From contig CASDOO010000002.1 of assembly GCA_949282275.1 (NCBI GenBank), forward strand, positions 2,022 to 66,021: a stretch of DNA of 64,000 nt. Reading direction: 5' to 3'. Below are positions 2,380-55,606 of the stretch, piece after piece; the first letter of the stretch is position 1, and the number at the start of each line of letters is the position of its first letter. This DNA is from an uncultured Bacillota bacterium (GTDB lineage: Bacteria > Bacillota_I > Bacilli_A > RFN20 > CAG-288). A program made the position numbers and the translations under genes. Below the pieces are notes generated by a model. That model was not told the origin of the DNA, searched no databases, and saw only the letters and a list, made by a program, of their open reading frames with translations.

Positions 2380-3714
2380 CTAGAGAGCAAGGGAACCCAT
2401 CGGATCCCAAGGCTCAAGCTCAATAGGTTCTTCTTCGTATTGGACAATTTCTTCGGGCGTGAGGTGTTTCTTGTTGATGACGACCTGGTAGACGAACTGA
2501 TCGAACCAGGAATCGTCCATGGCATAGAAGCCCTTGTAGCCATTTTGGTCGCCCCAGGAATTCTCCACCTTCCATCGGTCTGTCGATCCATCGTCAAGGA
2601 CGTTGACGCCGGTAAGGACCATCGCATGGGTCATCAGGGATTCGCCATAGTCGAGCCTTTCCTCCTTGGTCATGGCAAAGGAGGTCGAGAAAAGATTGTT
2701 ATAGTCGAAATTCGATAGCGACATGAGGCCGTCCGTCCTTTGCAGAGACTGACCGACATCGGAGCCAAACCAGACGACCTCGCCGTCCTCAAGCTGAGAG
2801 AGGGCGCAGCGCTTTAGCTCCGCGATGGGGAGATTGAGATAGCGGACCTTCTCGCCGACGAGGTTTCCGAGATACTTGACCGTGAAGGAACGATGGAAGG
2901 GCTTGTCCTTTGTCGGGGCATTGATGAGGGAAACGTACTGGTCCAGGTCGATTCCGACATACTTTTCGTAGAATTCCGTTGGCGTGATGTCCTCGATGCG
3001 GATGAAGCGGTTGTCCTTGTCTCGGGTCTCGTAGGTGAAAGAGACAGGCGGCTTTCCAAGGCAGATGACGAGGATGCCATAGATTTCCTTGAGCATCTCC
3101 TCCTTCTTGGCGCGAAGGGAGGGGAGGTCTTCGCCAGCCTCATGGGCCTTCCTCAGGATCGAGGCGTCCTTGCGGAGCTTGAGCGTGATGAGGCTATCCA
3201 TCTCCCGCGTCCTGGAAGAGGAATAGGTTTCCGGCATCGCTTCCTTGGGACAGACGCCATACTTCTTCGTCAGGCCGACGAACATGTTCCATTGTCCGCC
3301 ATCGCCGATGGGATCCCTAAGAAGATGGGAAAGGAGACGGGAAGATAACTTTTCATTAAGGGTTGCAAGGATGTTCTCGAGGAAGAAATTCGATTTTTCG
3401 AGCTTGTCATAGAAGAGCGGATAGTTCTGGCTGAGTTCCATGTTGTCAAGATGGAGCTTTTCCATGACCTTGAGACGAAAGACGTTATAGGCGGCAAACA
3501 TCCAGCAGCGTCCGGACTGTTTCTGGTTGCAGACCTTGCCGGCATCGAGATCGACGGAATAGTTCTCGACAAGGTGCCGCTTGACCTTGTAATTGGTAGC
3601 CGAGGCCGTGGGACCGTTCTGGGTGACGGCAAAGGCGGCAAGACGGTTCTTCTCGCTCTTGTCGAATTCTTCTTCGAAACGGCGAATATCTTCGATTGTG
3701 ATTTTTTCCTTCAT
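2380..3714 (-). CDS. pepC: aminopeptidase C / bleomycin-hydrolase-type cysteine peptidase (family C1B)
   Basis: 444 aa. Catalytic Cys context QKQSGRCWMFAA. His/Asn region HAMVLTG...WKVENSWG. C-terminal PWDPMGSLAL tail typical of PepC. GGAGAG SD before the ATG. Confidence 0.9.
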   Translation of the reverse strand: MKEKITIEDIRRFEEEFDKSEKNRLAAFAVTQNGPTASATNYKVKRHLVENYSVDLDAGKVCNQKQSGRCWMFAAYNVFRLKVMEKLHLDNMELSQNYPLFYDKLEKSNFFLENILATLNEKLSSRLLSHLLRDPIGDGGQWNMFVGLTKKYGVCPKEAMPETYSSSRTREMDSLITLKLRKDASILRKAHEAGEDLPSLRAKKEEMLKEIYGILVICLGKPPVSFTYETRDKDNRFIRIEDITPTEFYEKYVGIDLDQYVSLINAPTKDKPFHRSFTVKYLGNLVGEKVRYLNLPIAELKRCALSQLEDGEVVWFGSDVGQSLQRTDGLMSLSNFDYNNLFSTSFAMTKEERLDYGESLMTHAMVLTGVNVLDDGSTDRWKVENSWGDQNGYKGFYAMDDSWFDQFVYQVVINKKHLTPEEIVQYEEEPIELEPWDPMGSLAL

Positions 3715-3729: not shown

Positions 3730-5055
3730 CTAGAACAACGTGTTGTAAGGGTCGACCTCGACAAGCTTGGAACCATCGTAGCTTTCGACGACCTTCTTGG
3801 GAAGGTATTTCCTGTTGACGATGACTTGGAAGACATTGTCCGTGAACCATTCGTCGGACATGACGTAGAAACCGTCGAAGCCGTTTTCCTTGCCCCAGGA
3901 ATTCTCGACCTTCCAACGATCGGGCTTTCCTTCGTCATCGATGTTGACGCCAGTCAGGCACATGGCGTGGGAGCAGTGGGCAATGCGCATGTCCAGGCGC
4001 TTTCCCTTGTCATGGAGAAGGTCGATGCCGAAGACGGATTCGTAATCATATAGAGAGGCATCCAGGACGCCTTCCTTACGCAAGGACTGTTCGCCGACGT
4101 CGGCGGCAAACCACAAGGGCTCGTTCTCCTTAAGGGAAGCAATGGCCCCTTGCTTGATGGTCTTCATGTCGGTGGCAAAGAATACGACCGGCTCTCCGCC
4201 AAGGACGTTGTTGACAAGAGGGGCGGCATAACGGACGTTTTTCTTCCAGCCTGCGAGCGGGACATGCGAAAGCGGGACGTATTCCGCAAGCGTGGTGCCA
4301 ATGTGTTTTTCATAGAAGGCAAGAGGCGTCATCCTTTCCTCGCGATGGAAATTCTTTTCCTTGTCCCGGTATTCGAAGACGAAATCCTTCGGCGGAAGGC
4401 CTAGGCAGACGGAAAGGACACGATAGTAGTCCGAAAGCATCCTCTCCTTGAGCTTCCTTGCTTCCTTGGTCCCTTTCTTTTTTGCGCATTCCCGTAGCTT
4501 GAAAGCATCCCTCTTGAGGACCTTCGAAAGAAGGACGTTGAGCTCGCCGGTATCGCAGCTGACGGCTGTGTCGGGCATCGCATAGGAAGGGACGATGCCG
4601 TATTTCCTTACAAGGCTAACGAACATCGCCCAATGGCCGCCGTCGCCCAAGGCCGAATCCAGAAGGAAGACGTTTTCCCTTGATGCGATGTCTTCCGTGG
4701 AACGCTCGAGGATCTTCTCGAGGAAGAAGTTTCCCTTCTCGAGCTTGTCGTAGAACTGGAGATAGGCTTGGGAAAGCTCGATGTCGGCAATGCCCAGCGT
4801 GTCGATAAGCTTCTTCCGGAGGACATTGAGACCGGCAAACATCCAGCAACGTCCGGAGCGTTTCTGGTTAGTGACCTTGCCGCAATCGAGATCGATCGAG
4901 AAGACCGTCGGCAGCTTTCTATTCCGGGAAAGATCCACAAGTGCCTTTCCGATGCCGCAGGACGTGACGGCATTGGAAACGATTTTGGCTTTTTCGTCTT
5001 TTTGGTAGGCTTCCCTGAAGGAAGCGATATTGTCCAAGGTAAGGCTGGAATCCAT
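3730..5055 (-). CDS. pepC: second aminopeptidase C paralog (family C1B)
   Basis: 441 aa. QKRSGRCWMFAG, HAMCLTG...WKVENSWG. A diverged tandem paralog of the neighbour (roughly 40% identity by eye). GGAGG SD. Confidence 0.88.
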   Translation of the reverse strand: MDSSLTLDNIASFREAYQKDEKAKIVSNAVTSCGIGKALVDLSRNRKLPTVFSIDLDCGKVTNQKRSGRCWMFAGLNVLRKKLIDTLGIADIELSQAYLQFYDKLEKGNFFLEKILERSTEDIASRENVFLLDSALGDGGHWAMFVSLVRKYGIVPSYAMPDTAVSCDTGELNVLLSKVLKRDAFKLRECAKKKGTKEARKLKERMLSDYYRVLSVCLGLPPKDFVFEYRDKEKNFHREERMTPLAFYEKHIGTTLAEYVPLSHVPLAGWKKNVRYAAPLVNNVLGGEPVVFFATDMKTIKQGAIASLKENEPLWFAADVGEQSLRKEGVLDASLYDYESVFGIDLLHDKGKRLDMRIAHCSHAMCLTGVNIDDEGKPDRWKVENSWGKENGFDGFYVMSDEWFTDNVFQVIVNRKYLPKKVVESYDGSKLVEVDPYNTLF

Positions 5056-7356: not shown

Positions 7357-7415
7357 GCCGATTATGTTAATATAGTTTGCAGTTGCCGAAACATTGAAAG
7401 AAAAAGGAGGTTAGC

Positions 7416-10194: not shown

Positions 10195-12042
10195 ATGGCC
10201 TCTTTGCCCAAGTCCATCCGCTCCCTGACGAAGGATCAGGAGAAGGTCCTGGCCAGCGACATCCGCAGCGACATCCTCTCCACCGCCTATATCCATGGCG
10301 GACATCTTTCGCCGAACCTTGGCGTCGTGGAACTGACCCTGTCCCTGCTCAAGAACTTCGACCCCTACAAGGACGACATCCTTTTCGACGTCGGCCACCA
10401 GACCTATGCCTACAAGATCCTGACCGGACGTTCCCTCGAGAGGCTTCGCCAGTTCGGGGGCGAACCGCCTTTTTCCGACCCGGAGAGCTCGAAGGCGGAC
10501 AAGTTCCGCAACGGACATGCCTCAACGGCCATTTCCGTCGCCTATGGCATGGCCTTGGCCAAGGCTTTGGAAAACGACAAGAGCCATACCGTCAGCATCA
10601 TCGGCGATTCCTCCCTTGCCGGCGGCATCTCCATGGAGGCGCTGGGCCTTCTTGCCACGGACAAGAAGACGAGGCTGATCATCGTCATCAACGACAACGG
10701 CATGTCCATCGGCAAGGACGTCAGCTTCATGGGACGGGAATTCCGGAAGCTGCGCAATTCCCGCTTCTACTTCAGGACCTCCCGCTTCCTTTCGCGCGTG
10801 ATGTCGAAAACAAGGCCGACCAAGAGGCTTTTCCTTTGGATGCGTTCCGTCAAGGATAGGCTGAGGCAGATCGTCCTAAGGCCAACCGTTTTCGAAAGCA
10901 TGGGCCTCAAGTACATCGGCCCCTTTGACGGCCATGACTTCGAGGAACTCGACCTTGCCTTCAGCAAGGCCAAGGCGCTTGTGGAAAACGGGCCCGTCGT
11001 CGTCCATGTCCTGACCAAGAAGGGATATGGCTATTCCCCGGCGATGAAGGACGAAAAGGGAATCTTCCATGGCGTCAGCAGCCGCTTCGACGAAGAGAAG
11101 GCCACTGGGAACGACAACTTCGATTCCTACAAGAAGGAATTCCTCCTTGCGAAGATGGCAGAGGACAAGAAGGCTTTCGTCATCTGTCCGGCGATGGTTT
11201 TCGGCTCGGACCTCGAGGAGGTCTACAAACGCTATCCGACAAGGACAATCGATGTCGGCATTGCCGAGGAAAACGCGGTCACGATGGCAAGCGGCCTTGG
11301 CCTCAAGGGATACCATCCGATCGTCGATATCTATTCGACCTTCCTCCAGAGAAGCTACGACGAAGTCTTCGAGGACATCGCCCGGGAAAGATGCCCGAAT
11401 CTCTTCTTTGTCGAAAGGGCCGGTCTTGTCGGCGAGGACGGCCCTTCCCACCAAGGCATCTATGATGTCGCCTATCTGAGGACGATACCCCATTGTCGCG
11501 TCTTCATGCCCTACGACAGGGATTCCTTCTTCTTCCTTTCCCATTCCCTTTGGTTTACCAAGGATGTCCCGACCTTCATTCGGTGCTCCAAGGATGCGCC
11601 AGTGAACGACCATGCCGAAATCGAGAGAAGGAATGGCTACGACATCGTTTCCATGGCCAAACGCAAGAAACTGGTCATTGCCATCGGCCCAAACGGCATG
11701 GCGCTTTTGACGAAAGCCGCCAAGATGCCTTGGGACAACGTTCTCCTTCTCGATTTGCTTCCGGAGGATTCACTTTGGGATTCCCTGGATTTGTCGTCCC
11801 ACGAGGAAATCGTTCTATACGATCCTTATTCCACGCCGGAGGGGACCTCGGACAGTCTTGCGCGATATCTGCTTTCCCGCCATTATCAAGGACGCTATTT
11901 CCCTTTGTGTCTTCCGAAGGCATTCATCCCCCATGGCAAAGTCGAGGAACTCTATCGACACCTAGGCATGGATGTCGAATCTGCCTATGGGAAGATAATG
12001 GAACTGTTTGGAAAGGACAACCTTGCGGAAAAGAAGGCGTAG
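10195..12042 (+). CDS. dxs: 1-deoxy-D-xylulose-5-phosphate synthase (MEP pathway)
   Basis: 615 aa. GHLSPNLGVVELTLSL, TPP-binding GDSSLAGGISMEALG, transketolase-like C-terminus (GEDGPSHQGIYD). Synteny xseB-dxs-recN as in Bacillus, but without ispA. Confidence 0.93.
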   Translation: MASLPKSIRSLTKDQEKVLASDIRSDILSTAYIHGGHLSPNLGVVELTLSLLKNFDPYKDDILFDVGHQTYAYKILTGRSLERLRQFGGEPPFSDPESSKADKFRNGHASTAISVAYGMALAKALENDKSHTVSIIGDSSLAGGISMEALGLLATDKKTRLIIVINDNGMSIGKDVSFMGREFRKLRNSRFYFRTSRFLSRVMSKTRPTKRLFLWMRSVKDRLRQIVLRPTVFESMGLKYIGPFDGHDFEELDLAFSKAKALVENGPVVVHVLTKKGYGYSPAMKDEKGIFHGVSSRFDEEKATGNDNFDSYKKEFLLAKMAEDKKAFVICPAMVFGSDLEEVYKRYPTRTIDVGIAEENAVTMASGLGLKGYHPIVDIYSTFLQRSYDEVFEDIARERCPNLFFVERAGLVGEDGPSHQGIYDVAYLRTIPHCRVFMPYDRDSFFFLSHSLWFTKDVPTFIRCSKDAPVNDHAEIERRNGYDIVSMAKRKKLVIAIGPNGMALLTKAAKMPWDNVLLLDLLPEDSLWDSLDLSSHEEIVLYDPYSTPEGTSDSLARYLLSRHYQGRYFPLCLPKAFIPHGKVEELYRHLGMDVESAYGKIMELFGKDNLAEKKA

Positions 12043-12055
12043 GAGGAAAAGAAGA

Positions 12056-13708
12056 ATGATCAAGGAACTCTCGATTCACAATCTGGCCGTCATTCAGGAC
12101 TGCAGCATCGACCTGGAATCCCCCTACCTTGCCCTTCTTGGCGAAACCGGTGCGGGAAAAAGCCTCATCGTCGACTCCCTCTCCCTCCTTCGGGGCGAGA
12201 AGGCCGACAAGGGCCTGATCCGCAGCGGCGAGAAGGAAGCCAAGGTGAGCGCACTCTTCCACCTTGATTCCAGGACGCTCAAGCGTTTCCCCCGGCTTTC
12301 GCAGGAAGTCGACGAGGAAGGAAACTTGCTTCTTGCCCGCATCGTCTCCCTGGAGGGCGGATCGAAGTGCTATCTCAACGGCAGCCTGTGCTCATTGAAG
12401 GAATTGCGCGACATCGGCTCCCTTCTTATCGATATCCATTCCCAGGGAGAAAACAGCGCCATAGCCGACGAAAGGAAGGCACTTTCCTACATCGATGCCT
12501 ATCAAGGGAAGACGATCCTTCCCCTTCTTCAGGACTATCGCCAGGCCTACGAGAAGCTTCTGTCTGTCCGGGCCGAGAAGAACGCCTTTCTGAAGGAACA
12601 CGAAGACATGGATGCCGACTACCTCCGCTTCCAGGTCGAGGAAATCGAGAAGATGCACCTGAGGGAAAACGAAATCGAGGAGCTCGAGCAGGAAAGCCAG
12701 GACCTCAAGGGACTCGAGAGGCTTCGGGAAAGCTTTGAGCGTCTTGCGGAAGCCGGAAGGCTTGCCGAGGGAAACCTGTTCGATCTTCTTTCCGAATATC
12801 TTTCCAAGCTTCGTCCCCTTTCCAACACCTCCCTTTCCGAGCAATCCCAAAGGGCCTATGAGGCAGGGAGGGATTTCCTTCTTGCCATGGACGAACTCCG
12901 GGATTGCTATGCGCGCATGGAAGCCGATCCCGGAAGGATCGACTATATCAACGAAAGGCTGTTTTCCCTCAAGGGATTGCAGAGAAAATACGGAAAGTCG
13001 ACTGCGGAGATCCTTTCCGTCCTCAAGCAAGACAAGGAGAAGCTTTCCCGCCTCGAGGATTTCGAAGGCGAAAAGTCGCGGTACGAAAGGGAAGAGGAAA
13101 AGGCTTTCCGGGAATGTCTCGAGAGGGCCGATAGACTGACCGCCCAGAGGATTGCTTCCGCTAAGGAACTGTCCCTGAGGATCGGCACGGAAATGGCCGA
13201 TCTTGGGCTTTTGAAGGATGGATTCTCGGTCCGCTTCGCAAAGAAGGCGATTGCGCAAGACGGTCAGGACGAGGCCATATTCCTGGTTAGACTCAACAAG
13301 GGCCTTGAGGAGGCGGAATTGAGGAAAGCGGCATCCGGGGGCGAAAGCTCCAGGCTTATGCTGGCCTTGAAGGCCGTCCTCAATCGACTGTTCCCGGCCG
13401 ATGTCCTGGTCCTGGACGAGATCGATACCGGCATCTCCGGAAAGGCTGCCGGTCTTGTCGCCCGGAAAATCCAAAGCCTCGAAAAGGACAGCCAGGTCCT
13501 TGTCGTTTCCCATCTTGCCCAAGTCGTCGCCTCCTGTCGGGACGCCTTGGAAGTGGAAAAGAAGACCAAGGACGACAAGACATATGTCCAGGCAAGAAGG
13601 CTTGACGAAACGCAGAAGGAACAGGCCATCGCGAGAATGATTTCCGGCAAGGAAGTCACCGCTGCCGCCCTCGAGCAGGCCAAGGAACTGATTGCGGAAT
13701 ACCGCTGA
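12056..13708 (+). CDS. recN: DNA repair protein RecN
   Basis: MIKELSIHNLAVIQD...LLGETGAGKSLIVDSLSLL (Walker A), a long coiled coil, and a C-terminal signature/Walker B (SGGESSRLMLALK...VLVLDEIDTGISG). AGGAGG SD before ATG 12056. Confidence 0.94.
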   Translation: MIKELSIHNLAVIQDCSIDLESPYLALLGETGAGKSLIVDSLSLLRGEKADKGLIRSGEKEAKVSALFHLDSRTLKRFPRLSQEVDEEGNLLLARIVSLEGGSKCYLNGSLCSLKELRDIGSLLIDIHSQGENSAIADERKALSYIDAYQGKTILPLLQDYRQAYEKLLSVRAEKNAFLKEHEDMDADYLRFQVEEIEKMHLRENEIEELEQESQDLKGLERLRESFERLAEAGRLAEGNLFDLLSEYLSKLRPLSNTSLSEQSQRAYEAGRDFLLAMDELRDCYARMEADPGRIDYINERLFSLKGLQRKYGKSTAEILSVLKQDKEKLSRLEDFEGEKSRYEREEEKAFRECLERADRLTAQRIASAKELSLRIGTEMADLGLLKDGFSVRFAKKAIAQDGQDEAIFLVRLNKGLEEAELRKAASGGESSRLMLALKAVLNRLFPADVLVLDEIDTGISGKAAGLVARKIQSLEKDSQVLVVSHLAQVVASCRDALEVEKKTKDDKTYVQARRLDETQKEQAIARMISGKEVTAAALEQAKELIAEYR

Positions 13709-14763
13709 TGGAAAAGAGAATCGTCCATATCGATCTTAACGCCTTCTATGTCCAGGCCGAATGCCTCAAGGATCCTTCCCTTGCGGGAAAGCCATTGGCC
13801 GTCGGCTATGACGGCAGGCGTGGCGTCGTATCGACCGCATCTTACGAAGCGCGCAAGTTCGGCGTCAATTCCGGTATGCCGATTTCAAAGGCAAAGGAAC
13901 TTTGCCCAAATCTTCTTATCATTAATTGCCATTTCAGTCTCTATCGGGAATTTTCGAACCGCTTCTTTGGCTATTTGCGAAAACGTTTTCCGATTCTTGA
14001 ACAGGCTTCCATCGACGAATGCTATATCGACATGACCAAGGAGACAGCAGGCGAGGACCTTGCCGTCTTCCTCTTTGACCTTCAGCTTTCCCTCTACAAG
14101 ACGACGAAGCTGAAATGCTCGATCGGCTGTGGCGCCAATCGATTCCTGGCCAAGATGGCAAGCGACATGAAGAAGCCCATGGGCCTGACGATCCTGACGC
14201 GGGACAACATAGTGGAAAGGCTCTGGCCCCTTGCCATCGGGAAGATGTACGGCATCGGAAAGAAGACGGCCCCGCGCCTGGAAAGCCTTGGCATATTGAC
14301 GATAGGCGACCTTGCCAAGACAAAGGACGAAGGCGTCCGCCGCCTTTTGGGCTCCCAGTTCGATTATTATCAGGGCGAGGCAAATGGGTGGGGAGACGAT
14401 GTCGTCGATACCTCTGCCTTCGATCCCAAGTCCTGCTCGGCGGAAAGGACCTTCCAGGAGGACGTGACAGGCTATGAGGAAGTCAAGGACATGATACGTT
14501 CCTGCTGCGAGGACGTCAGCCATGAATTGAAGAAATATTCCAAGATTGCCAGGATCGTCTCCGTCAAGCTGCGGGACGAGGGCTTTTCCACGCGCTCCCG
14601 TCAAAAGGCCCTTGCCTCGCCCTCAAACGAGGCCTCGGACCTCTTCTTTGCCGCCATGTCCATCTTCGACGCCTTCTATCGCGGCGAGAGCCTAAGACTG
14701 GTCGGCGTGACGGCCGAAAAGGTCTCCGATGTCGAAGAATCGGACAAGGAGGATGGGAAATGA
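13708..14763 (+). CDS. dinB: DNA polymerase IV (Y-family)
   Basis: [14 protein letters not shown]...[10 protein letters not shown]...SIDECYID motifs. The ATG overlaps the recN TGA (TGATG). Confidence 0.93.
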
Positions 14764-15677
14764 CCATACGCGAGGCAATCGAAGGCTTCCTGACCTATCT
14801 TGCCAGCGAGAAAGGCGACACGAAGAGAACACTGGACTGCTACACGATCGATCTGCTGGCCTTCGAGAAGATGACGAAGAAGGAAAGGGCGGAAGACCTC
14901 GACAGCCAGGACTATGTGGATTATCTTCTTCAACTTGCGGAACAAGGCCTTTCCAAGGCGACGCTAGTGCGAAAAGGAATGGCCCTTAGGGGACTTTATC
15001 GCTATCTCAAGATGGAAGGTAAGATCGACGTCCTCCTTTCCAACCTCAAGACGCCGGAAAAGGAAAAGAGACTCCCGAAGACATTGTCCGACGAAGAAAT
15101 CCGAAGGCTTTTCCAGTCCATCGAGACGGGCGACTACAAAGGCCTCCTGGACTTGACGATGATGGAACTTTGCTACAGCTGCGGACTCCGCGTGAGCGAA
15201 CTCGTCTCCCTGCGCATGGATCAGATCAACGTCAAGGGAAAGTACCTGAAGATCCTCGGCAAGGGAAACAAGGAAAGGATGGTTCCCATATCCCAGGAAG
15301 CCGATTCCTATCTCCAGCTCTACCTGAAGGAAAGGAAGACGAAAAGGAAGGCCGGAAAGATCCTTTTCCTCCACAAGGACGGAAAACCGACATCCCGCCA
15401 GTATTTTTTCCTAATGCTACGGAAAAGGGCAAAGGAGGCCGGTATAACGACGCCCGTCCATCCTCACATGCTTCGCCACAGCTTCGCGACGACGCTTTTG
15501 GAGAATGGCGCCCCGATAAGGCAGGTCCAGGAACTTCTGGGGCATAGCCAGGTGGAGACGACGATGATCTATACCCATGTCTCTTCCCGCCTCAAGAAGG
15601 AGGCCTATGACAGGGCAATGAATCGCCGTGCCAAATCCCAGGCGTCTTCCGACAAAGAAGACGCCAAAGCGGTATAA
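14760..15677 (+). CDS. xerD: XerD-like site-specific tyrosine recombinase
   Basis: Core-binding and catalytic domains with R (CGLRVSEL), HxxR (HMLRHSFAT), and H..Y ([16 protein letters not shown]). Precedes deoB as ripX(xerD)-drm does in B. subtilis. XerC versus XerD cannot be settled by eye. Confidence 0.85.
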
Positions 15678-17866: not shown

Positions 17867-18646
17867 ATGACAAATCGAAAAAAAGGAATCCGAGGATTCT
17901 TTCAAAGCAAGATCGTTCTATATGTCTTCGGACTTCTTTTCGTGATTGTCCTATGGGAAATCATTTCCTTATCGACGGGCCAATCGTTTCTTCCGGAATT
18001 CTTCTCCTGTCTCGCAAGGGCCTTTTCCATGCTGGCAATAGGAAGGACCTATGAGGCCATTGGTTATACGCTCCTAAGGCTTTTCCTGGCCTTGCTAGGG
18101 TCTGGCGTCGTTGGTATCCTTTTAGGAACGTTGGCAGGCTATTATCGGGCGCTGGAGACGTTTCTGCAGCCCCTGATAACTGTCCTTCGTGCCTTTCCGA
18201 CGGTCGCCATGGTGCTTCTTCTTATCGTTTTCGTTCCAATGGCTCCTGTATGGGTTGTCTCGTTTGTCGTTTTTCCAGTCCTGTATCAGGCTACGCTAGA
18301 AGGTTCCAGGCAGACTTTGGAAGCCTATTCGATGTTGATCCGATTGCGAGGAAAGAATCGCGTTTCGAACATTACCAAAGTCATATTGCCATTGTCCGTC
18401 GACAATATCAGTTTGGGTTTTGTCCAGGCATTGGGGCTAGGCATGAAAGTCGAAATCATGGCTGAAACGTTTTCCTATTCGACAAATGAAATAGGACTGG
18501 GACAAATGATAATGTCGAGTTATCAAACAGTGGATTACGAAAGGCTGATGGCCTTGGTATTGATTTCACTCTTTTTGATCTTGCTTCTGGAGGGAATATT
18601 GAAATTGGCAAAAGGAAAAATTCATAAACTAATTTTAGGCGAATAA
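17867..18646 (+). CDS. ABC transporter permease (binding-protein-dependent, NitT/TauT-like)
   Basis: 259 aa, about 6 TM helices, and an EAA-like loop region (LRGKNRVSNITKVILPLSVDNISLGFVQALGLGMKVEIMAE). Lower GC than the window average (about 37-50% in lines I counted). Confidence 0.75.
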   Translation: MTNRKKGIRGFFQSKIVLYVFGLLFVIVLWEIISLSTGQSFLPEFFSCLARAFSMLAIGRTYEAIGYTLLRLFLALLGSGVVGILLGTLAGYYRALETFLQPLITVLRAFPTVAMVLLLIVFVPMAPVWVVSFVVFPVLYQATLEGSRQTLEAYSMLIRLRGKNRVSNITKVILPLSVDNISLGFVQALGLGMKVEIMAETFSYSTNEIGLGQMIMSSYQTVDYERLMALVLISLFLILLLEGILKLAKGKIHKLILGE

Positions 18647-18698
18647 ATTAGAGATTGATTTGAATGCTATTTTGTGAAAATCGGCTGTGATTTACAAA

Positions 18699-18726
18699 TA
18701 GTAATTATTTGGTACTATTTAGTAAC
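18699..18726 (+). repeat. left copy of a 28-nt direct repeat (TAGTAATTATTTGGTACTATTTAGTAAC)
   Basis: Aligns with 18988-19015 with one indel on each side and 2 mismatches. Contains the GTACTA core. Confidence 0.8.
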
Positions 18727-18808
18727 TATATTTATTCAACTCTATATTAGTTATATTCTAGTACTAGAAATACACTATATTCACATAAGTGATTGACTTA
18801 TTGTTTTC

Positions 18809-18836
18809 TATTAACATAATAAACATTAGGCGAAGC
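18809..18836 (-). other. dif: candidate dif site (XerC arm - 6-bp spacer - XerD arm)
   Basis: Minus strand reads GCTTCGCCTAA-TGTTTA-TTATGTTAATA. This matches E. coli dif GGTGCGCATAA-TGTATA-TTATGTTAAAT at 22/28 positions (own alignment): XerD arm 9/11, spacer 5/6. Confidence 0.65.
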
Positions 18837-18987
18837 AATATAAACCGGCAAAATATAGTATTTTCCTGGTACTAATGTTTTACTGTGTTCATGATTCCTC
18901 TACTTCTTATATATTTCTTCTCAAATTGAAAAATTAAAATAGTTCATTTCCAGTACTATAAATGTACTATCCATGGACTATACTATT

Positions 18988-19015
18988 TAGTTAATTATTG
19001 GTACTATTTATTTAC
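18988..19015 (+). repeat. right copy of a 28-nt direct repeat (TAGTTAATTATTGGTACTATTTATTTAC)
   Basis: Direct repeat of 18699-18726. Overlaps the mtnN stop codon (19008-19010). Confidence 0.8.
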
Positions 19016-19691
19016 TAAGTTGCAATTTAATGATTTTGACAGCCAATGTCACCGCTTTTTTGCATGCCTCTCCCAAGCTTTCAGTGTATTGCTCTTCATT
19101 CCCTTCTTCTTCGGTGTCATCGGAAATCGTACGCAGGATGCCAAAGGGGATGTTAGCCATATGACAGCACTGACCTACGGCTGCCGATTCCATATCGATG
19201 GCAATAGGATCGTCAAAGTCTTTATCTAGACTCTTCGGCATATTTTCCTTCGTGACAAACAAATCGCCGGTCAGGACAAGCCCAAGGTGGATCTTGGAAT
19301 CCAATTGTCTAGACAATTCGCAAAAGCGAGGAGAGGCTTCGAAATAAAGCGGGTGATCTGCCATCTGGCCTCTCTTCATTCCCGGAATGTCGACATCATA
19401 ATAGGCGGCCTTCGTTGCGCAAAAAGCATCATATCTTTTCAGGCGATGCCGAATCGTCCCGGCGACGCCCGTATTGACGACCAAGTCATATTGGCGTTCC
19501 TGGACCTTCTTCCCAATCGAAAAGGCCATGGCGGTCTTTCCGATGCCGCCGCGCATCAAAGTCCAGAAAATGCCGTCGGAGATAACGCAAAAGGAATCTT
19601 TGCGATCCTCGATTCTCGTGGCTTCTTTGAAAGCTTCTTCGACGGCCTGCCATTCGTCATCCGTGGCTACGATGAGAAGGACGTTTTTCAT
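19008..19691 (-). CDS. mtnN: 5'-methylthioadenosine/S-adenosylhomocysteine nucleosidase (PNP_UDP_1 family)
   Basis: MKNVLLIVATDDEW..., GGIGKTAMAF, NTGVAGT, TGDLFV, IDMESAAVGQ, ILRTISD motifs. The ATG overlaps the rsfS TGA (ATGA). The upstream part of the 252-aa ORF was discarded. Confidence 0.8.
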   Translation of the reverse strand: MKNVLLIVATDDEWQAVEEAFKEATRIEDRKDSFCVISDGIFWTLMRGGIGKTAMAFSIGKKVQERQYDLVVNTGVAGTIRHRLKRYDAFCATKAAYYDVDIPGMKRGQMADHPLYFEASPRFCELSRQLDSKIHLGLVLTGDLFVTKENMPKSLDKDFDDPIAIDMESAAVGQCCHMANIPFGILRTISDDTEEEGNEEQYTESLGEACKKAVTLAVKIIKLQLSK

Positions 19692-22809: not shown

Positions 22810-25413
22810 TTACTTTTTGTCTTTTTCGAAGAGATCGAAGAGAGAAAGCTGGGTGTCGGCCTTGTCGACGCTGGCCTTGACCGGGCTGACCTTGACGACC
22901 TTGGGCGTCTCGATGGGGAACGAGGCGTCGATGACTTCGCCGAAATCGTTCCTGCCCTCCAGGAGGCTCTTTCCAAGTCCCGGTATGTTCTCGCGCATTT
23001 CGGAATTGAGCTCGACGGGGGCAAGCTCGCCCAGATCGATGACGACGTTCTGGTCTTCGCTGGTCGCGCTGACGACGTTCCTCTGGCCGCGCACCTTCTC
23101 GACCTTGCTCAGGGAAACGATGTTCATCGGGTTCTTCTTAAAGATGCGGACGAGGTTGGTCTTCGCCCCGAGCCTTTCTGTCGTCTCGATCTTCGTTGAG
23201 GAGACAAGCCTTGCGGCACGCCTGTCGGCAAGGATAAGAAGGAGGGAGGCCTCCTTGCTGGTCAGGGAGACAAGGGCGGAAAGCGGCGTGTTGTCGATCG
23301 TGGAGGAAATGGCCTTGACGCCCATGGCCCCAAGGGAGACAAGCGGAATGTCCGACTCGTTGAAGCGGCTTGCCCTTCCAAGGCCATCGCAGACGATGAG
23401 GTCGGAGTTGCCACTGGTCATTTCGACGCCGACAAGCGCATCGGCATCGTTGAGAAGCTTGCAGGCACGCAGGGTCCTCTTTGTCAGGCCGGATTGGCGG
23501 AATTCCGTTAGGGCCGTCCTCTTGATCTTGTTCTCCCGAGTCAGCATGACGACGTTGACGCCTTGACGGAATTCATCCAGGAGGAAGACACGAACGACCT
23601 TCTCGTTGGCCTTGAGCGTAAGAAGGTTGTTGAGATGCTTTCCCTCCTCCTTCCACTTGAGCTCCGGAAGCTGATAGACGGGAATGTAGCCATAGTTGCC
23701 CCGATCGGTAAAGAAGAGCAGGGAATCGTGGGTTGAGCATTTCCGACAGAAGACGATCCTGTCCCCGGGCTTGGTCTTCGGCAGGGGAACGATCTCGTCC
23801 TTGTTGGCATCGCAATAGGCCTGATAGGACTTGGGCGTCGTCCTCTTGCTGTAGCCATCCTCGGTAATGGCGACATAGCAGTCTTCCTTGGCGATGAGCT
23901 TGGTCTGGTCGACGGCATTGAAGACGAGCTTCTCGTCGAGGATTTGCGTCCTTCTCTCGCGGGCGAATTCCTTCCGGACTTCCTTGAGGCTCTTGACGAT
24001 TTCGTGATCGAGCTTCTCGGAATCGGAGAGAAGGCCCTTGAGCCTTTCGATGTCCTTGCGAAGGCTTTCGTCTTCCTCCCGCAGGGCGACGATGTCGGTA
24101 TTGGAAAGACGATAGAGAGGAAGCATGGCGATGGCTTCCGCCTGGTTCTCGGTAAAGCCGTAGTCCTCGCGAAGCATCTGCTTGACGGATTCCTTCCCGT
24201 GGCATTTCTTGATCTTGGCGATGACCTCGTCGACGATGGAATAGACCTTGACAAGGCCGGCGACGATTTCGAGCCGCTTCTGGTCCTGCCGAAGATCGTA
24301 TGCCGCCGTGCGGGTCTCGATTTCCCGCTGATGGTCGATATAGGCGTCGAGGATCTCAAGAAGCGGAAGGGTCTTGGGGTGTCCCTTGACGATGGCAAGG
24401 AAGTTGCAGGAAAGGTTGTTTCTCAGGCAGCCTTTCGACTGAAGGTAGTTGAGGACGTCTTCCGGACTGGCGCCCTTCTTGATCTTGATGACGATATGGA
24501 CGTCGTCCTTGGCGGATTCGTCGACGATTTCCTCGATGTTGTCGAGATTGTCCGTCTCCTTCCTTTTCGTGAGATTGGCGACGAAATCGATCTTGACGAC
24601 ACCGGTCGGAATCTGGTCGATCACGATCGTGTTCTCATCGTGGTCGATCGTGACATGGCTATAGACGGTCAGGGTCCCCTTTCCCGTCTCGTAAAGCGAA
24701 CGGATTGCGGCCTTGTCGTCGAGGATGCCGCCCGTCGGGAAATCGGGGCCCTTGATGAAGGCCATGATGTCATCGAGGTTGGCCCGGCGGTGCGTGATCC
24801 GGTAGATGGTCGCATCGATGACCTCGCCGAGATTGTGGCTGGGGATGAACGTCGTGCTTCCGACGGCGATGCCCTGCGTTCCGTTGACAAGGAGATTGGG
24901 GAAGCGTGCCGGAAGGACGGTCGGCTCGAGGGACTTGTCGTCAAAGGTCGGAACCATCTCGACGGTTTCCTTCTCGATTCCGCGGACGAGGTATTCGCTC
25001 AGTCTCGAAAGCCTTGCCTCGGTATAACGGTTGGCGGCAGCGGGATCGTCGTCGATGGAGCCGTTGTTTCCCTGGAAGTCGACAAGGGGCTCTTCCATCT
25101 TCCATCCCTGGGAGAGGTGGACGAGGGCATCATAGATGGAGGCATCGCCATGGGGATGGTAATGGCCCATGACATGGCCGACGATGGTGGCGCACTTGAC
25201 CGTGGGCTTGCTGTAGAGGTCGCCTTGGTCGAACATGTCGTAGATGATCCTTCGCTGGACGGGCTTGAGGCCATCGCGGACGTCCGGAATGGCGCGGTCG
25301 GTGATGACGGCCTTGGCATAGCGGTTGAAAGCCTGGATGAGGACATCGCTCATCTGGGAGGGAACGATGTCTTCGGCAGAAAGGATCTGTTCCTCTTTCT
25401 TCTTACTTTTCAC
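22810..25413 (-). CDS. parC: DNA topoisomerase IV subunit A
   Basis: [43 protein letters not shown] (the NNGS form is typical of Gram-positive ParC). Adjacent parE with divergent plsY as in Bacillus. GTG start preceded by AAGGAGG at 6 nt. ParC versus GyrA was called from motifs and synteny only. Confidence 0.88.
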
Positions 25414-27337
25414 GTTCTACCTCCTTGGTGAATGTATCCTTCGTCGTGAAGTCGATGTTGTTCTCGATCCAGTCCTTTCGCCGATCGGTGTCCTTGCCGA
25501 GGAAAAGATTGACCTTGTCCTTGCACTCCTCATCGTCCTGGATGAAGACGCGGAGCAGCTTCCTTTTCTCCGGAAGCATCGTCGTCGTGGAAAGCTGATC
25601 GTAGTTCATTTCGCCAAGACCCTTGTAGCGGTTGACCTTGTAGCCCTTGCCGATCGCCTGCTTGGCCTTTTCCAGCTCGGTATCGTCATAGCAGTAGATT
25701 TCCTTCTTGCCGTTGTAGACGCGATAAAGGGGCGGGCAGGCGATATAGACATGTCCCGTCTCGAGAAGCGGCTTCATGTGGCTGTAGAAGAAGGTCAGGA
25801 GGAGGGATTGGATATGGCTTCCGTCGTCATCGGCATCGGTCATGATGATGACTTTTCCGTAATGGATGTCCTTGACCTTGAAGTCGGAGTCGAATCCCGC
25901 GCCGATGGTATAGATGAGGGTCGCGATTTCCTTGTTTCCGAGAAGGGCCTTCTCGTCCTCGACGTCGGTGGTGTTCTTGGGCTTTCCGCGAAGCGGGAGG
26001 ATGGCCTGATGGCGGGGATCCCGGCCCTTCTTGGCCGAACCGCCGGCGGAATCGCCCTCGACGATGAAGAGCTCGTTGCGGAGGTAGTCCTTGCTGGAGC
26101 AGGGGGTCAGCTTGTCGGAAAGGTTGAAGGAGGAAATCTTGCTCTTGAGAAGCTCCCTTTCCTTGCGCCTTGCGTTTTCCGCTTGCACCCTGGCTTTCAT
26201 CTCGTCGGTCGTCTTCTTGACGACGGCGCTGGCTTCTCCGTCGTGTTCCTCAAGATAGTAGCTCAGCTTGCTTTCGACGACCTTGTCGACGGCATTGATG
26301 GCTTCCTTCGTTCCAAGCTTGCCCTTCGTCTGGCCTTCGAACTGAAGGAGATGCTCGGGAACCCAGGTGGAAAGGATGGCGACAAGCCCTTCCCTCAGGC
26401 AGTCCCCGTCGAGGGAATCGTTGCTCCGGATCTGCTTGTGGTTGATGGCATAGGAATTGAAGCAGTTGGTCAGGGCCTTCTTCAGGCCGGTGACGTGATA
26501 GCCGCCATCTCCCGTGCGGACGCCGTTTGCAAAGGAGATGATCTTCTCGTCGTAGTTGTCCTTGAGGAAGCCGAAGGTCACCTCGACCTTGATGCCATCC
26601 TCGCTCTTACCTTCGATGTGGATGGCGCTGGTCAGGCCATCCTTGCCCGCCGTGTGGCGGAGATAGTATTCCAAAAGGCCGTTTTCATAATAGAAATCCT
26701 GCTTCCGGCCGCTTCTTTCGTCCAGGAGGTGGAACGTCACGCCCTTCGTCAGGCAGGCCTGGTCATCGAGATGCTGGGCAATCCGGTCGAAGGAGAAATT
26801 GGTGTCCGAGAAAATCGAGCCGTCGGGAAGGAAGCGGACATCCGTTCCCCTTTTCGTCGTCGGCCCGAGGTCCTGAAGCGGGCTTGCCTTCTTTCCGCCG
26901 TTCTCGAAACGCATGAAATGGTCCCTGCCGTCCTTGAAGGAATGGACTTCCATCCAGACGGAAAGGGCATTGGTGACCGAGGCGCCAACGCCATGAAGAC
27001 CGCCGGCGCTCTTGTAGTTGCTTTCGTCGAACTTTCCGCCGCCATGCAGGGTCTGGTAGACGATCTGGAAGCCGTTCATCTTCTCGCGGGCATTGTAGTC
27101 ATAGGGAATGCCGCGTCCCTGGTCGCAGACCTCCAAGGAACCATCGTCGTGGATGGTCACGTAGATATGCTTTCCGTAGCCTTCGTTGGCTTCGTCGACG
27201 GCATTATCGACGATTTCCCATACGAGATGGTGGAGACCGACGGTATCCGTCGATCCGATATACATGCCAGGTCGTTCCCGAACCGGCTCGAGGCCATGGA
27301 GTACGGTCAGGCTTTTGGCATCATATTTATCGCTCAT
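25403..27337 (-). CDS. parE: DNA topoisomerase IV subunit B
   Basis: GHKL ATPase N-terminus (LHGLEPVRERPGMYIGSTD...HHLVWEIVDNAVDE) and a Toprim domain (ELFIVEGDSAGGSAK). Start set at ATG 27337, with GAGGTG 6 nt upstream; the ORF-track start 27346 is a GTG. Confidence 0.9.
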   Translation of the reverse strand: MSDKYDAKSLTVLHGLEPVRERPGMYIGSTDTVGLHHLVWEIVDNAVDEANEGYGKHIYVTIHDDGSLEVCDQGRGIPYDYNAREKMNGFQIVYQTLHGGGKFDESNYKSAGGLHGVGASVTNALSVWMEVHSFKDGRDHFMRFENGGKKASPLQDLGPTTKRGTDVRFLPDGSIFSDTNFSFDRIAQHLDDQACLTKGVTFHLLDERSGRKQDFYYENGLLEYYLRHTAGKDGLTSAIHIEGKSEDGIKVEVTFGFLKDNYDEKIISFANGVRTGDGGYHVTGLKKALTNCFNSYAINHKQIRSNDSLDGDCLREGLVAILSTWVPEHLLQFEGQTKGKLGTKEAINAVDKVVESKLSYYLEEHDGEASAVVKKTTDEMKARVQAENARRKERELLKSKISSFNLSDKLTPCSSKDYLRNELFIVEGDSAGGSAKKGRDPRHQAILPLRGKPKNTTDVEDEKALLGNKEIATLIYTIGAGFDSDFKVKDIHYGKVIIMTDADDDGSHIQSLLLTFFYSHMKPLLETGHVYIACPPLYRVYNGKKEIYCYDDTELEKAKQAIGKGYKVNRYKGLGEMNYDQLSTTTMLPEKRKLLRVFIQDDEECKDKVNLFLGKDTDRRKDWIENNIDFTTKDTFTKEVEREK

Positions 27338-27427
27338 TTCATTCACCTCAACATATAATTTTAAATTTTGTAAGCCTGAAAATAAAGCAAATGCTTTATA
27401 ATCGTTCCTATTCGGGGGTTAACGAAA

Positions 27428-51207: not shown

Positions 51208-51281
51208 ATCCTTGTTTATTTTCGGTCATTCATTTTCACTGAATGAAGAGACGAGAATTCTGTATAGACAAGGAGAAAGAA

Positions 51282-52745
51282 ATGAATTACAGAATCGACA
51301 AAAAGACGAAGATCGTTTGCACCATTGGACCTGCCAGTCAGCAGAAGCCTGTCCTCACGGAGCTTCTCCGCAATGGCATGACCTGCATGAGACTGAACTT
51401 CTCCCATGGCGACCATGAGGAACAGCTTGGAAAGATCAAGACCCTTCGCGAAATCGAGAAGGAAGAGAACATCATCATCCCGATTTGTCTCGATACCAAG
51501 GGTCCCGAAATCCGGACCGGAAAGTTCGAAGGCGGAAAGGCTGCCTTCAAGGCGGGCGATGAGGTCCGTATCTATATGGGAACCGAAAGGATCGGAAACA
51601 CCAAGGCCTTCGGCGTCACCTACACCGGCCTTTATGACGATGTCCAGGTCGGCTCCGATATTCGTCTTGACGATGGCAATCTCGTCATGACCTGCATTGG
51701 CAAGGACGAAAAGACCCATGAGCTCATCATGAAGGTCCTCAACGACCATACCTGCAATGACAAGAGAGGCGTCAACTGCCCTGGTGCCCACCTGACAATG
51801 GATTATCTTTCTCCGCAGGACCGTTCCGATCTTATCTTCGGTTGCGAGAACCATGTCGACATCTGCTCCGCCTCCTTCGTCCGTACCGTCAACGACATCC
51901 GCGAAATCCGCAAGCTCTTCAAGGAGCATGGCGGCGAGAACATCCTCATCTTCTCCAAGGTCGAGAACACCGAGGCCATCGAGAACCTGGATGCCATCAT
52001 CGAGGAATCCGACGGTATCATGATTGCCAGAGGCGATCTCGGCATCGAGATTCCTCCGGAAATGGTTCCTGTCTATCAGAAATACATGATTCAAAAGTGC
52101 CGTCAGCTCGGAAAGCCGGTCATCACGGCCACCCAGATGCTCGATTCCATGATCCGCAACCCCTATCCGACCAGAGCCGAAGTCTCCGACGTTGCCTGGT
52201 CCATCGAGGAAGGCACCGATTGCGTCATGCTCTCCGGCGAGTCGGCAAACGGCGACTATCCTGTCCAGGCCGTTCAGATGCAGGCCCGCATCGCCAAGGT
52301 CATGGAAGAGCGCTTCGACTATGAGGCAGCCAGCCACCAGGCCTTCGATTCTTCCCGCAAGACGACGAATGATGCCATCGCCACTGCCGTTGCCGACACG
52401 GCTCAGATCGTCAACGCCAAGCTTATCGTCTGCTTCTCCGTCTCCGGCGCCACGGCCGTCCGTATCAGCAAGACAAGGCCGGTCTGCCCTGTCATCGTCG
52501 TTTCCTCCGACAGAGATGCTTTGGCCCATTCCATGCTCTACTACGCCAACTATCCCTATCTTGTCGAGAAAGTTCCTCAGTTCCTCGAGGAAATGGAAGT
52601 CCTGGCTCTCAAGATTGCCAAGGACTACAAGCTCGAAAAAGGCAGCAAGATCATCCTCACGGGTGGAACGCCTGTCGGAGCCGGAAAGACCAACTTCCTG
52701 AAGGTACTGTCCCTCAACGATCAGGGCGTCATCGACGAAGACTAA
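51282..52745 (+). CDS. pyk: pyruvate kinase
   Basis: KTKIVCTIGPAS, MRLNFSHG, DTKGPEIRTG, IMIARGDLGIEIP, and MLSGESANGDYP motifs. AGGAG SD before ATG 51282. Confidence 0.95.
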   Translation: MNYRIDKKTKIVCTIGPASQQKPVLTELLRNGMTCMRLNFSHGDHEEQLGKIKTLREIEKEENIIIPICLDTKGPEIRTGKFEGGKAAFKAGDEVRIYMGTERIGNTKAFGVTYTGLYDDVQVGSDIRLDDGNLVMTCIGKDEKTHELIMKVLNDHTCNDKRGVNCPGAHLTMDYLSPQDRSDLIFGCENHVDICSASFVRTVNDIREIRKLFKEHGGENILIFSKVENTEAIENLDAIIEESDGIMIARGDLGIEIPPEMVPVYQKYMIQKCRQLGKPVITATQMLDSMIRNPYPTRAEVSDVAWSIEEGTDCVMLSGESANGDYPVQAVQMQARIAKVMEERFDYEAASHQAFDSSRKTTNDAIATAVADTAQIVNAKLIVCFSVSGATAVRISKTRPVCPVIVVSSDRDALAHSMLYYANYPYLVEKVPQFLEEMEVLALKIAKDYKLEKGSKIILTGGTPVGAGKTNFLKVLSLNDQGVIDED

Positions 52746-52766
52746 AAGGCAAAGGAGCATACAGGT

Positions 52767-53645
52767 ATGTCCAAGAATCTTATTGCGATCGACTGCGGTG
52801 GCACGAATCTTCGTGTCGCCATGATGGACGAGGAGCTCAACATCAAGGCTGTCCACAGGGTTCCCTCCATCAAGAACGATCCCGCCAAGCTCTGCGACCG
52901 CATGATCGAACTCATCGCAACCGTGGAGGAAGAGTCCGGCCTTAAGAAGGATGCCATCGGCATGTCCATCTGCGGTGTCGTCAGCCACAACCGCGTCGGC
53001 CGTTGCGGAAATCTCGGAATCGAGTTCGGCTACGATTTCCATGGTCGCTTCAGCGAAACCTTCTCGGGCATCCCTGTGCGTATCGCAAACGATGGCAATT
53101 GCTCCGCCTATGTCGAAAGCCGTTTCGGCGTCAACAAAGGCTATCTCGATTCCGGATTCATCACCATTTCCTCCGGCATCGGTATTGGCATTGTCCACAA
53201 CGGCGAAATGATCGACCTTCCGATGGAAGCCGGAAGGCAGGTCATCGAATACTGCGACAAGCTCTACGAGGCCGAATATCTTTGCTCCGGAAACGGCATC
53301 GTCCGTCTCTGTGCACGCGAAGGACTGACCATCCCCAACGCCAAGACCTTCTTCGACCTTGTCAAGGAAAACGACAAGGAAGCCCGCCGCATCTACAACA
53401 TCTGGCTCCGCCTTTTGGGAACATGGCTTGGAAACCTCCAGCTCCTCTTCAATTGCAATTCCTATGCCCTCTCCGGCGGAACGTGGCAGGCCAGCGCTGT
53501 CTATAAGGAAGATCTTGCCAAGGTCGCCAATGCCACCATCGCTTCCTGGCACATCAATCCGATCGTCCTTCGTTCTGCCAAGTATGACCAAGACGTCGGT
53601 CTTGCCGGCGCCGCCTCGCTCGCTCTCCACGAATTGGAGAAGTGA
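52767..53645 (+). CDS. glk: ROK-family glucokinase
   Basis: LIAIDCGGTNLRVA ATP-binding start, ANDGNCSA, GIGIGIV. AAAGGAG SD. Confidence 0.85.
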   Translation: MSKNLIAIDCGGTNLRVAMMDEELNIKAVHRVPSIKNDPAKLCDRMIELIATVEEESGLKKDAIGMSICGVVSHNRVGRCGNLGIEFGYDFHGRFSETFSGIPVRIANDGNCSAYVESRFGVNKGYLDSGFITISSGIGIGIVHNGEMIDLPMEAGRQVIEYCDKLYEAEYLCSGNGIVRLCAREGLTIPNAKTFFDLVKENDKEARRIYNIWLRLLGTWLGNLQLLFNCNSYALSGGTWQASAVYKEDLAKVANATIASWHINPIVLRSAKYDQDVGLAGAASLALHELEK

Positions 53646-53660
53646 AGAAAGAAGAACAAC

Positions 53661-55589: not shown

Positions 55590-55606
55590 CACGAGACGAT
55601 ACGCAA

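Follow-up and report, generated by a model that had tools for sequence, protein, structure and literature searches.

A probable chromosomal dif site within a conserved array of palindromes in an uncultured Bacilli lineage

The window considered here, a 64,000-nucleotide stretch of contig CASDOO010000002.1 from an uncultured Bacillota bacterium, carries at positions 18809-18836 a 28-bp sequence that probably (at a probability of about 0.8) serves an uncultured Bacilli lineage as its chromosomal dif. The locus is very probably a genuine dif lying within a previously undescribed array of 30-bp palindromes, designated P. As a dif site it is ordinary, and alone it would amount to routine annotation; the novelty, and the part that matters, is the conserved P array. 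The dif proposed by an earlier sequence-only reading of this DNA is supported; what is unusual at the locus, the repeats on either side of the site, escaped that reading. To our knowledge, chromosomal dif sites are regarded as independent of accessory sequences and controlled by FtsK. No description of such a motif array, or of accessory DNA around a chromosomal dif, was found in the open-access literature.

The proposed dif lies on the minus strand and is supported by its sequence, its uniqueness and orthologous sites in 14 related loci. It is composed of the following parts:

18809-18836, minus strand: 28-bp dif site, reading GCTTCGCCTAATGTTTATTATGTTAATA from 18836 to 18809
18836-18826: XerC-type arm, GCTTCGCCTAA
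18825-18820: central region, TGTTTA
18819-18809: XerD-type arm, TTATGTTAATA

Two 11-bp arms enclose a 6-bp centre with partial dyad symmetry, which is the layout of a dif site. Re-reading returned exactly the sequence and coordinates given by the sequence-only reading, together with the identities it had claimed, namely 22 of 28 positions shared with Escherichia coli dif (8/11 in the XerC arm, 5/6 in the centre and 9/11 in the XerD arm) and 18 of 28 shared with Bacillus subtilis dif. It had further remarked that the site holds the densest G/C cluster of the island; within the surrounding 362-bp gap, GGCGAAGC is the G/C-richest patch. Among the published predicted sites that were compared, the closest is that of Pseudomonas aeruginosa PA14 (24/28). 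The 28-mer is present in a single copy in the window, even with three mismatches allowed. Measured with a position weight matrix derived from 43 non-redundant predicted dif sites of Firmicutes (Kono et al. 2011, PMC3025954, supplement 2), the site reaches 16.0 bits and leads the runner-up match in the window (1.5 bits) by 14.5 bits. About one match of at least 16 bits is expected by chance per 3 Mb of sequence of the window's composition, and 16 bits are reached by 0.7% of dinucleotide shuffles of the 384-bp, 25%-GC gap. Taken alone, the site is therefore more than a chance match, yet a moderate candidate; it is accepted as dif because its relatives keep their best dif match at one syntenic spot. 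The ten plus-strand bases immediately outside the XerC arm (18837-18846, AATATAAACC) are identical to the flank of E. coli dif (L140, positions 1523-1532), an identity attributed to coincidence because the relatives do not keep those bases.

Related loci were gathered through a XerD search of GTDB genomes and a homologous-protein search with exact contig look-ups, and the relatives of the source lineage, a Bacilli genome assembled from gut-type metagenomes in ENA, include Candidatus Enterosoma merdigallinarum. Fourteen of these loci reach the gap, covering XerD identities from 98 down to 39% and GC contents from 31 to 59%. The genes flanking the gap keep their order, left and right, in relatives with as little as 39-47% XerD identity, and the conserved junction is a convergent gap that follows xerD-deoB-(transporter) and precedes MTAN-rsfS-yqeK-yqeH-parC-parE, where MTAN denotes the methylthioadenosine/S-adenosylhomocysteine (MTA/SAH) nucleosidase gene. 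Conservation in relatives had been suggested by the sequence-only reading as a check on the site, and it holds: of 15 related loci, 14 have their top dif-matrix match at one and the same syntenic place and on one strand, and this applies to every locus that reaches the gap. These sites and their matrix scores are:

L007: ACTTCGTCTAATGTTTATTATGTTAACG, 27.8 bits
L008 and L113: ACTTCGCTTAATATCAATTATGTTAATA, 17.0 bits
L009: TATGCGCATAATATCTATTATGTTAATA, 17.3 bits
L010: AATGCGGATAATGTTAATTATGTTAATA, 13.1 bits
L136: ACTTCGCATAATCCTTATTATGTTAATC, 20.4 bits
L114: ACTTCGCATAATGTTTATTATGTTAATA, 25.4 bits
L115: ACTTCGTATAATGTTTATTATGTTAATA, 27.3 bits
L138: AATTCGCATAATGTTTATTATGTTAACA, 27.8 bits
L139: AGTGCGTATAATCTTTATTATGTTAACA, 26.5 bits
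L116: ACTTCGTATAATATTTATTATGTTAATA, 30.4 bits
L118: ACTTCGGATAATATTTATTATGTTAAAC, 29.5 bits
L117: ACTTCGTATAATCTCTATTATGTTAACT, 38.4 bits
L119: ACTTCGCATAATGTCTATTATGTAAACT, 38.6 bits

Sixteen of the 28 positions are invariant (T3, C5, G6, TAAT at 9-12, ATTATGT at 17-23, A25 and A26), including the inner TAAT...ATTA across all 15 orthologous sites. The XerD arm is better conserved than the XerC arm and the centre is variable, as is usual for dif. The family consensus, which coincides with the L114 site (ACTTCGCATAATGTTTATTATGTTAATA), is identical at 23 of 28 positions to the predicted dif of B. weihenstephanensis and L. casei. The sites of the most distant relatives, L117 and L119, score within the 33-51-bit range of the training set and represent canonical Firmicutes dif. 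Each related locus (12-21 kb) contains a unique dif match, with no second candidate in any of them. Judged by its sequence, the window site is a somewhat degenerate orthologue of canonical Firmicutes dif.

By comparison with characterized sites, the core belongs to the Firmicutes dif family, with reservations as to copy number, terminus position and XerC. With the dif of Firmicutes such as B. subtilis, which is served by CodV/XerC and RipX/XerD, the family shares the length of 28 bp divided as 11 + 6 + 11, the XerD arm TTATGTWAA, the inner half-palindrome TAAT...ATTA, the convergence of gene orientation at the site and the presence of a XerD-type enzyme. It differs in that the window copy deviates at positions 1, 7-8, 15 and 27-28, xerD is linked at 3 kb, the P array flanks the site, and CodV/XerC was not seen in the 64-kb window. 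E. coli dif shares the 22/28 identity and the arm/centre layout, whereas it belongs to another phylum and the window site has no detectable polarity of the kind associated with KOPS (FtsK-orienting polar sequences). The E. coli site needs no accessory DNA beside it, its control being exerted by FtsK and KOPS.

Two related loci carry additional dif-like sequence. In L115, the dif is duplicated (12291-12318 and 12609-12636, 318 bp apart); the second copy was set aside as most likely a scaffolding artefact, as it comes after a stretch of N and is preceded by the same sequence, letter for letter, as stands upstream. L137 is a rearranged relative in which degV and a TetR gene are inserted after the permease gene. 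At 13518-14130 it contains a long P array, repeating about every 116 bp, and a hybrid site, ACTTCGTATAATATCCATTTCGTTTGAA, that retains the XerC arm only, as found at the junctions of integrative mobile elements exploiting Xer (IMEX); the contig ends 250 bp beyond this hybrid site.

The genomic position of the site is likewise consistent with a dif. The sequence-only reading had located it at a strand switch, and it does lie in a gap between convergent genes:

18647-19007, no strand: AT-rich (25% GC) non-coding gap of about 362 bp between convergent operons, holding dif and the P array
17867-18646, plus strand: ABC permease gene, last of the left operon, ending 163 bp before dif
19008-19691, minus strand: MTA/SAH-nucleosidase-like gene, last of the right operon, ending 172 bp after dif
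14760-15677, plus strand: XerD-like tyrosine recombinase gene (Pfam Phage_integrase, 8e-51; top NCBIfam model XerD)

Gene orientation over the 64 kb converges on the site, with about 12 of 14 genes to its left on the plus strand and about 27 of 31 to its right on the minus strand. This strong convergence has the look of a Firmicute replichore junction, and the putative terminus is placed here from gene orientation over these 64 kb. The gap itself (18647-19007) contains no Rfam family, plausible open reading frame (ORF) or intrinsic terminator, and promoter-like sites are not in excess there. For the fragmented metagenome-assembled genomes of the clade, the dif site would anchor the replichore junction.

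The recombinase gene noted by the sequence-only reading about 3 kb away was confirmed by profile searches. It is located 3.1 kb from the site, which lies downstream of it with three genes between, and linkage of xerD and site recurs in all relatives examined (3.1-6 kb across 14 loci). The encoded protein contains both Xer domains and all of the catalytic residues (R, K, H-x-x-R, H and Y), and its homologues carry the name XerD in their source databases. Its NCBIfam scores are 274 for XerD (trusted cut-off 329.6) and 262 for XerC (335), both below the cut-off. Its best PDB match is E. coli XerD (1a0p) at 153.4 bits, compared with 70.6 bits for XerH structures, and the XerS model yields 119.8 bits against a cut-off of 267. 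A metagenome scan with the XerD alignment returned only XerD of 33-40% identity from unrelated taxa.

The same data bear on whether the XerD-like enzyme acts alone in a lineage devoid of XerC, in the manner of XerS at difSL or XerH at difH, an alternative that the sequence-only reading had itself raised. The two arrangements resemble each other in that recombinase gene and site are linked and co-conserved, and tight gene-site linkage is typical of single-recombinase modules (PMC5357621). Both NCBIfam scores fall short of their cut-offs, and no second recombinase is encoded within the window. Against these points stand the XerS and XerH scores, which place the protein far from either type, and the distance of 3 kb, rather than adjacency, between gene and site. 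Furthermore, the arms differ consistently (ACTTCG... versus ...GTTAATA) and match the XerC and XerD arms of the canonical two-arm Firmicutes dif, while the search for XerC covered 64 kb only. The position of xerD beside deoB, as in the ripX-drm region of B. subtilis, is the ancestral context of XerD. A single-recombinase system is accordingly considered unlikely.

Several findings weigh against the identification of the site as dif. The 16.0 bits of the window site fall below the 33-51 bits of the training sites, and the site has C in place of the near-invariant A at position 8 and TA in place of CT at positions 27-28; it is mainly this C and the TA at the outer end of the XerD arm that lower the score. 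No gene for XerC, FtsK/SpoIIIE or a second recombinase was found within the 64-kb window. Known words of KOPS or SRS (SpoIIIE recognition sequences) show no polarity toward the site in the window, the counts for the guide words GAGAAGGG, GGGNAGGG and GAAGAAG being 5 versus 8, 3 versus 9 and 39 versus 36, respectively, and the most skewed 7-mers look like codon effects. In addition, the local GC skew of the window carries an origin-like sign, with its cumulative minimum at the convergent junction. The plus strand is C-rich to the left of the site and G-rich to its right, as in other high-GC lineages, whereas the low-GC relatives L116, L117, L139 and L119 have the same genes with the reversed sign, which is the classical terminus pattern. 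Because the sign flips between high- and low-GC relatives of identical gene order, local GC skew is not usable as a terminus marker here, and the origin-like skew of the window looks like a coding-strand effect. Coding strands in the window are C-rich at third codon positions, with a skew at these positions (GC3 skew) of about -0.2 whichever their orientation. Genes that would be lagging under the terminus hypothesis have a GC3 skew of about -0.26 versus about -0.18, a weak trend in the expected direction.

A score below that of every training site, attained by 0.7% of gap shuffles, is also what would be expected of a chance dif-like sequence. Alternatively, the accessory-like flanking repeats, as in cer and psi, and the hybrid site of L137 could indicate a Xer site of an integrated element or of plasmid (cer/psi-like) type, the true dif lying elsewhere. 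Either origin is very improbable, as the site keeps one syntenic position among housekeeping genes in 14 loci spanning 31-59% GC, the distant relatives have a canonical site, and a second candidate is absent from every locus examined. No mobile-element genes are present beside the site among the genes of the window. It is this conservation that effectively excludes a chance or mobile-element origin. In an unbiased check of the dif identity, the gap was compared by BLAST with 7.3 Gb of plasmid records, and the single match was a copy of E. coli dif.

The P motif that surrounds this dif is a symmetric palindrome of 30 bp, TAGTA-N8-GTAC-N8-TACTA (fuller consensus, aaNTAGTAnttannTAGTACTAnntaanTACTAntt), built from four TAGTA/TACTA words at 11-bp spacing in two inverted pairs. 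Its copies in the window are:

18699-18728: P site scoring 31.4 bits on the P matrix, 109 bp away from dif (centre to centre) towards the XerD arm
18748-18777: P site, 60 bp away from dif (centre to centre) towards the XerD arm, 31-bp spacer, member of a helically phased distance series
18856-18885: P site, 48 bp away from dif (centre to centre) towards the XerC arm, 19-bp spacer
18940-18969 (centre +132), with an overlapping copy shifted by 11 bp at 18951-18980: three GTACTA-type words with an 11-bp period
18988-19017: P site, centre +180, outer arm overlapping the stop and last codons of the MTA/SAH-nucleosidase-like gene

These six matches, all of them at 18699-19017, compare with 0.18 expected from shuffles of the window and 0.009 in shuffles of the gap itself. 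The P matrix is positive in 13 of the 15 related loci. Across the window and the related loci, a total of about 300 kb, matches of at least 12 bits occur essentially only within about 450 bp of dif, the exception being one 16-bit match in L119. The positions are also conserved. Counted from the middle of dif, the P centres of the window, L007 and L008/L113 (XerD identity 62-81%) fall at about -60, +48, +133 and +181 bp, and the spacers measure 31/30/31, 19/19/20, 54/55/55 and 18/18/17 bp (window/L007/L008-L113), that is, they are kept to within ±1 bp. The sequence identity of these spacers is 36-42%, compared with a random expectation of 33%. Across the P-bearing lineages, the nearest P on the XerD-arm side is found at 47, 50, 59-60, 71 or 79-82 bp, in classes about one helical turn apart. 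Rayleigh R is 0.80 at 10.5 bp, with a Monte Carlo p of 0.003 over nine values taken, conservatively, as independent, and members of the classes are dispersed across the XerD tree.

These regularities suggest how the locus might operate. By the established Xer mechanism, a XerC-type recombinase would bind the arm GCTTCGCCTAA and the XerD-like enzyme encoded 3 kb away would bind the arm TTATGTTAATA, and strand exchange across TGTTTA would turn chromosome dimers into monomers where the replichores meet. With its four sub-sites, P would be bound by a symmetric oligomer, probably two dimers, of a candidate protein that would form one nucleoprotein assembly with the Xer-dif complex. A single assembly is proposed because the lineages preserve the length between P and dif and the helical phase with respect to the XerD arm, but not the spacer sequence. 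P would then have an accessory or architectural role, governing synapsis or the activity of XerD, rather than being an independent element, and the gated XerD step would be the one controlled by FtsK-gamma in E. coli. The dif of this clade is thus tentatively viewed as the core of a nucleoprotein element of about 350-500 bp, in which a predicted, probably tetrameric, P protein in register with the XerD arm controls synapsis or XerD activation.

An accessory-factor-dependent chromosomal dif of this kind might, by analogy and with the same reserve, follow a logic like that of cer and psi or of activation by FtsK-gamma or XafT, with a new factor. In cer and psi, where PepA acts with ArgR or ArcA, a Xer core is likewise adjoined by protein-binding DNA whose distance to the core matters. 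The core in those systems is plasmid-borne and the accessory DNA, of about 180 bp, is located on the XerC-arm side only, whereas the window site is situated amid chromosomal housekeeping genes, with P copies to its left and right, the phased one being towards the XerD arm. P is not related to the ARG or ArcA boxes. Its half-site, TAGTA-N6-TAGTA, shares the 11-bp direct-repeat layout of an ArcA box.

Three points tell against this proposal. The phasing was spotted post hoc after nine lineages, and of the three lineages added later, two fit (60 and 71) and one is marginal (47). P distances on the XerC-arm side are unphased. Finally, L117 and L119, which belong to one clade, have a canonical dif without a P array, and P is therefore not required for dif as such. 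In each of these two 20-kb loci, the only perfect DnaA box (TTATCCACA) is found 70-95 bp from dif on the XerD-arm side (L117, 16720-16765; L119, 12600-12665), with one or two one-mismatch boxes alongside. DnaA boxes beside dif are unexpected, and the side they occupy is that of P(-60) in other lineages. A separate association concerns the XerC arm, which has lost the near-invariant A8 (CCTAA, TCTAA or CTTAA) in the window, L007, L008 and L113, exactly the lineages with a P 19-20 bp from the XerC arm (+48). All other lineages retain A8 and have no P within +60; the group that lost A8 is one clade and represents a single evolutionary event.

Rather than serving dif, the P array could be an independent terminus device merely co-located with it, either a Ter-like fork barrier or a matS-like marker (MatP- or ZapT-like) or SMC-unloading set, a reading that is possible but doubtful. 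With a length of about 30 bp and four sub-sites, P recalls the ter sites of B. subtilis, overlapping repeats of 32 bp that each bind two dimers of the replication terminator protein (RTP); several of these lie near dif, and the innermost pair, terI and terII, are about 0.1 kb apart (PMC13220808, PMC10331603), a spacing to which that of the P copies near dif can be likened. P copies also flank dif on both sides at a convergent junction, and in Enterobacterales dif is always enclosed by the innermost ter sites (PMC10331603). Polarity is nevertheless absent: half-sites facing dif and those facing away from it score 14.16 and 14.35 bits, respectively (54 sites, p = 0.69), and the variants of the centre, TGGTACTA and TAGTACCA, are not side-specific and are inconsistent in orientation. 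A polar fork trap was rejected on account of this lack of asymmetry, RTP-Ter sites being arranged in opposed orientations and P being symmetric. Neither the ±1 bp spacing nor the phasing with the XerD arm is expected of an independent barrier or marker, and all P copies lie within about 450 bp of dif, an array of about 0.5 kb, while ter and matS sets span tens to hundreds of kilobases. The window is without a match to the 13-bp MatP/matS site GTGACNNNGTCAC, a consensus for B. subtilis Ter after Griffiths et al. 1998 gave none within three mismatches, and the ORF scan turned up no rtp-like gene. According to reviews, lineages with Tus or RTP are the only ones for which fork traps are known (PMC10331603, PMC13220808). 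The P array is distinct from RTP-Ter, Tus-Ter, matS and the accessory DNA of cer and psi.

A further function that has to be weighed is that of a roadblock or insulator, by which P would stop the convergent operons from transcribing across dif in place of intrinsic terminators. On either flank, P sites do stand between dif and the end of the neighbouring gene, and the gap lacks a terminator-like hairpin in the window, L007, L010, L114, L118 and L136. However, the P-bearing L009 and L116 have a terminator and the P-less L119 is without one by the same rule, and neither exact spacing nor phasing with the XerD arm would be needed for such a role, which is rated quite improbable. The assembly of P with the Xer-dif complex remains the favoured, if tentative, account of the array.

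In these gut Bacilli, a poorly known group, dif-exclusive palindromes with base-pair spacing and XerD-arm phasing point to a DNA-binding factor specific to the terminus. Once identified, it would reveal the way in which Firmicutes lacking RTP arrange termination, dimer resolution or the positioning of the terminus, and the clean contrast between P-bearing and P-less sister lineages offers a phylogenetic-profiling route to its gene. Predicted sites of the Desulfovibrio regulator LysX (GTGGTACTAATTAGTACCAC, PMC545781) share the half-site GGTACTA/TAGTACC with P, which provides a lead for the binder family. Three candidates for the binder were considered and rejected. A 322-aa protein without a Pfam match is a lipoprotein (lipobox LLSGC); a 159-aa ORF between asp23 and nusB tracks the presence of P perfectly, yet encodes a membrane protein; and the TetR gene abutting the L137 array is divergent from degV and probably encodes its regulator. 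Searches for the P motif returned 16 isolated matches in viral contigs, with no arrays and no dif, and nothing in plasmids apart from E. coli dif itself.

The genes on either side of the junction are largely housekeeping genes. To the left, on the plus strand, the order is tex, an asp23-like gene, nusB, xseA, xseB, dxs, recN, dinB, the XerD-like recombinase gene, deoB, a lipoprotein gene and the ABC permease gene. On the right, the minus-strand genes toward the site are parE, parC, a HAD phosphatase gene, yqeH, yqeK, rsfS and the MTA/SAH-nucleosidase-like gene, and the right-hand set also includes aspS, hisS, relA, sigA, dnaG, glyS, era, rsmH, mraZ, thyX, pheST and ftsZ. Chromosome-maintenance genes cluster beside dif (12008-15677 and 22810-27346) and are syntenic down to about 40% XerD identity, with recN, dinB and xerD to its left and the topoisomerase IV genes parC and parE 4-8.5 kb to its right. 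A divergent plsY accompanies parC/parE, as in B. subtilis. In E. coli, topoisomerase IV acts preferentially at dif, and the linkage of its genes to dif may be no accident.

A second perfect copy of the XerD-arm 12-mer (ATTATGTTAATA) occurs on the plus strand at 7361-7372, 5 nt past the tex stop codon, where 0.07 copies are expected. The form (A/G)TTATGTTAA is kept at the homologous place in L007 (about 2619) and L008 (about 2617), and there is an occurrence in L114 (about 8862, minus strand). This copy could be a lone XerD half-site, for which the XDS sites of B. subtilis reportedly offer a precedent, or the extended -10 promoter (TGTTAATAT) of the asp23-nusB-...-xerD operon.

Two further features of the window stand apart from the dif locus. 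A 1458-aa ORF at 51216-55592 on the minus strand has no Pfam match even at E = 0.01, and its coding strand is G-rich overall, unlike those of its neighbours (plus-strand GC skew -0.13); it may encode a surface protein specific to the lineage, or the frame may have been called in error. The sole left-side genes that point away from the site are two aminopeptidase C (Peptidase_C1_2) genes in tandem at 2380-3714 and 3730-5055, both on the minus strand.

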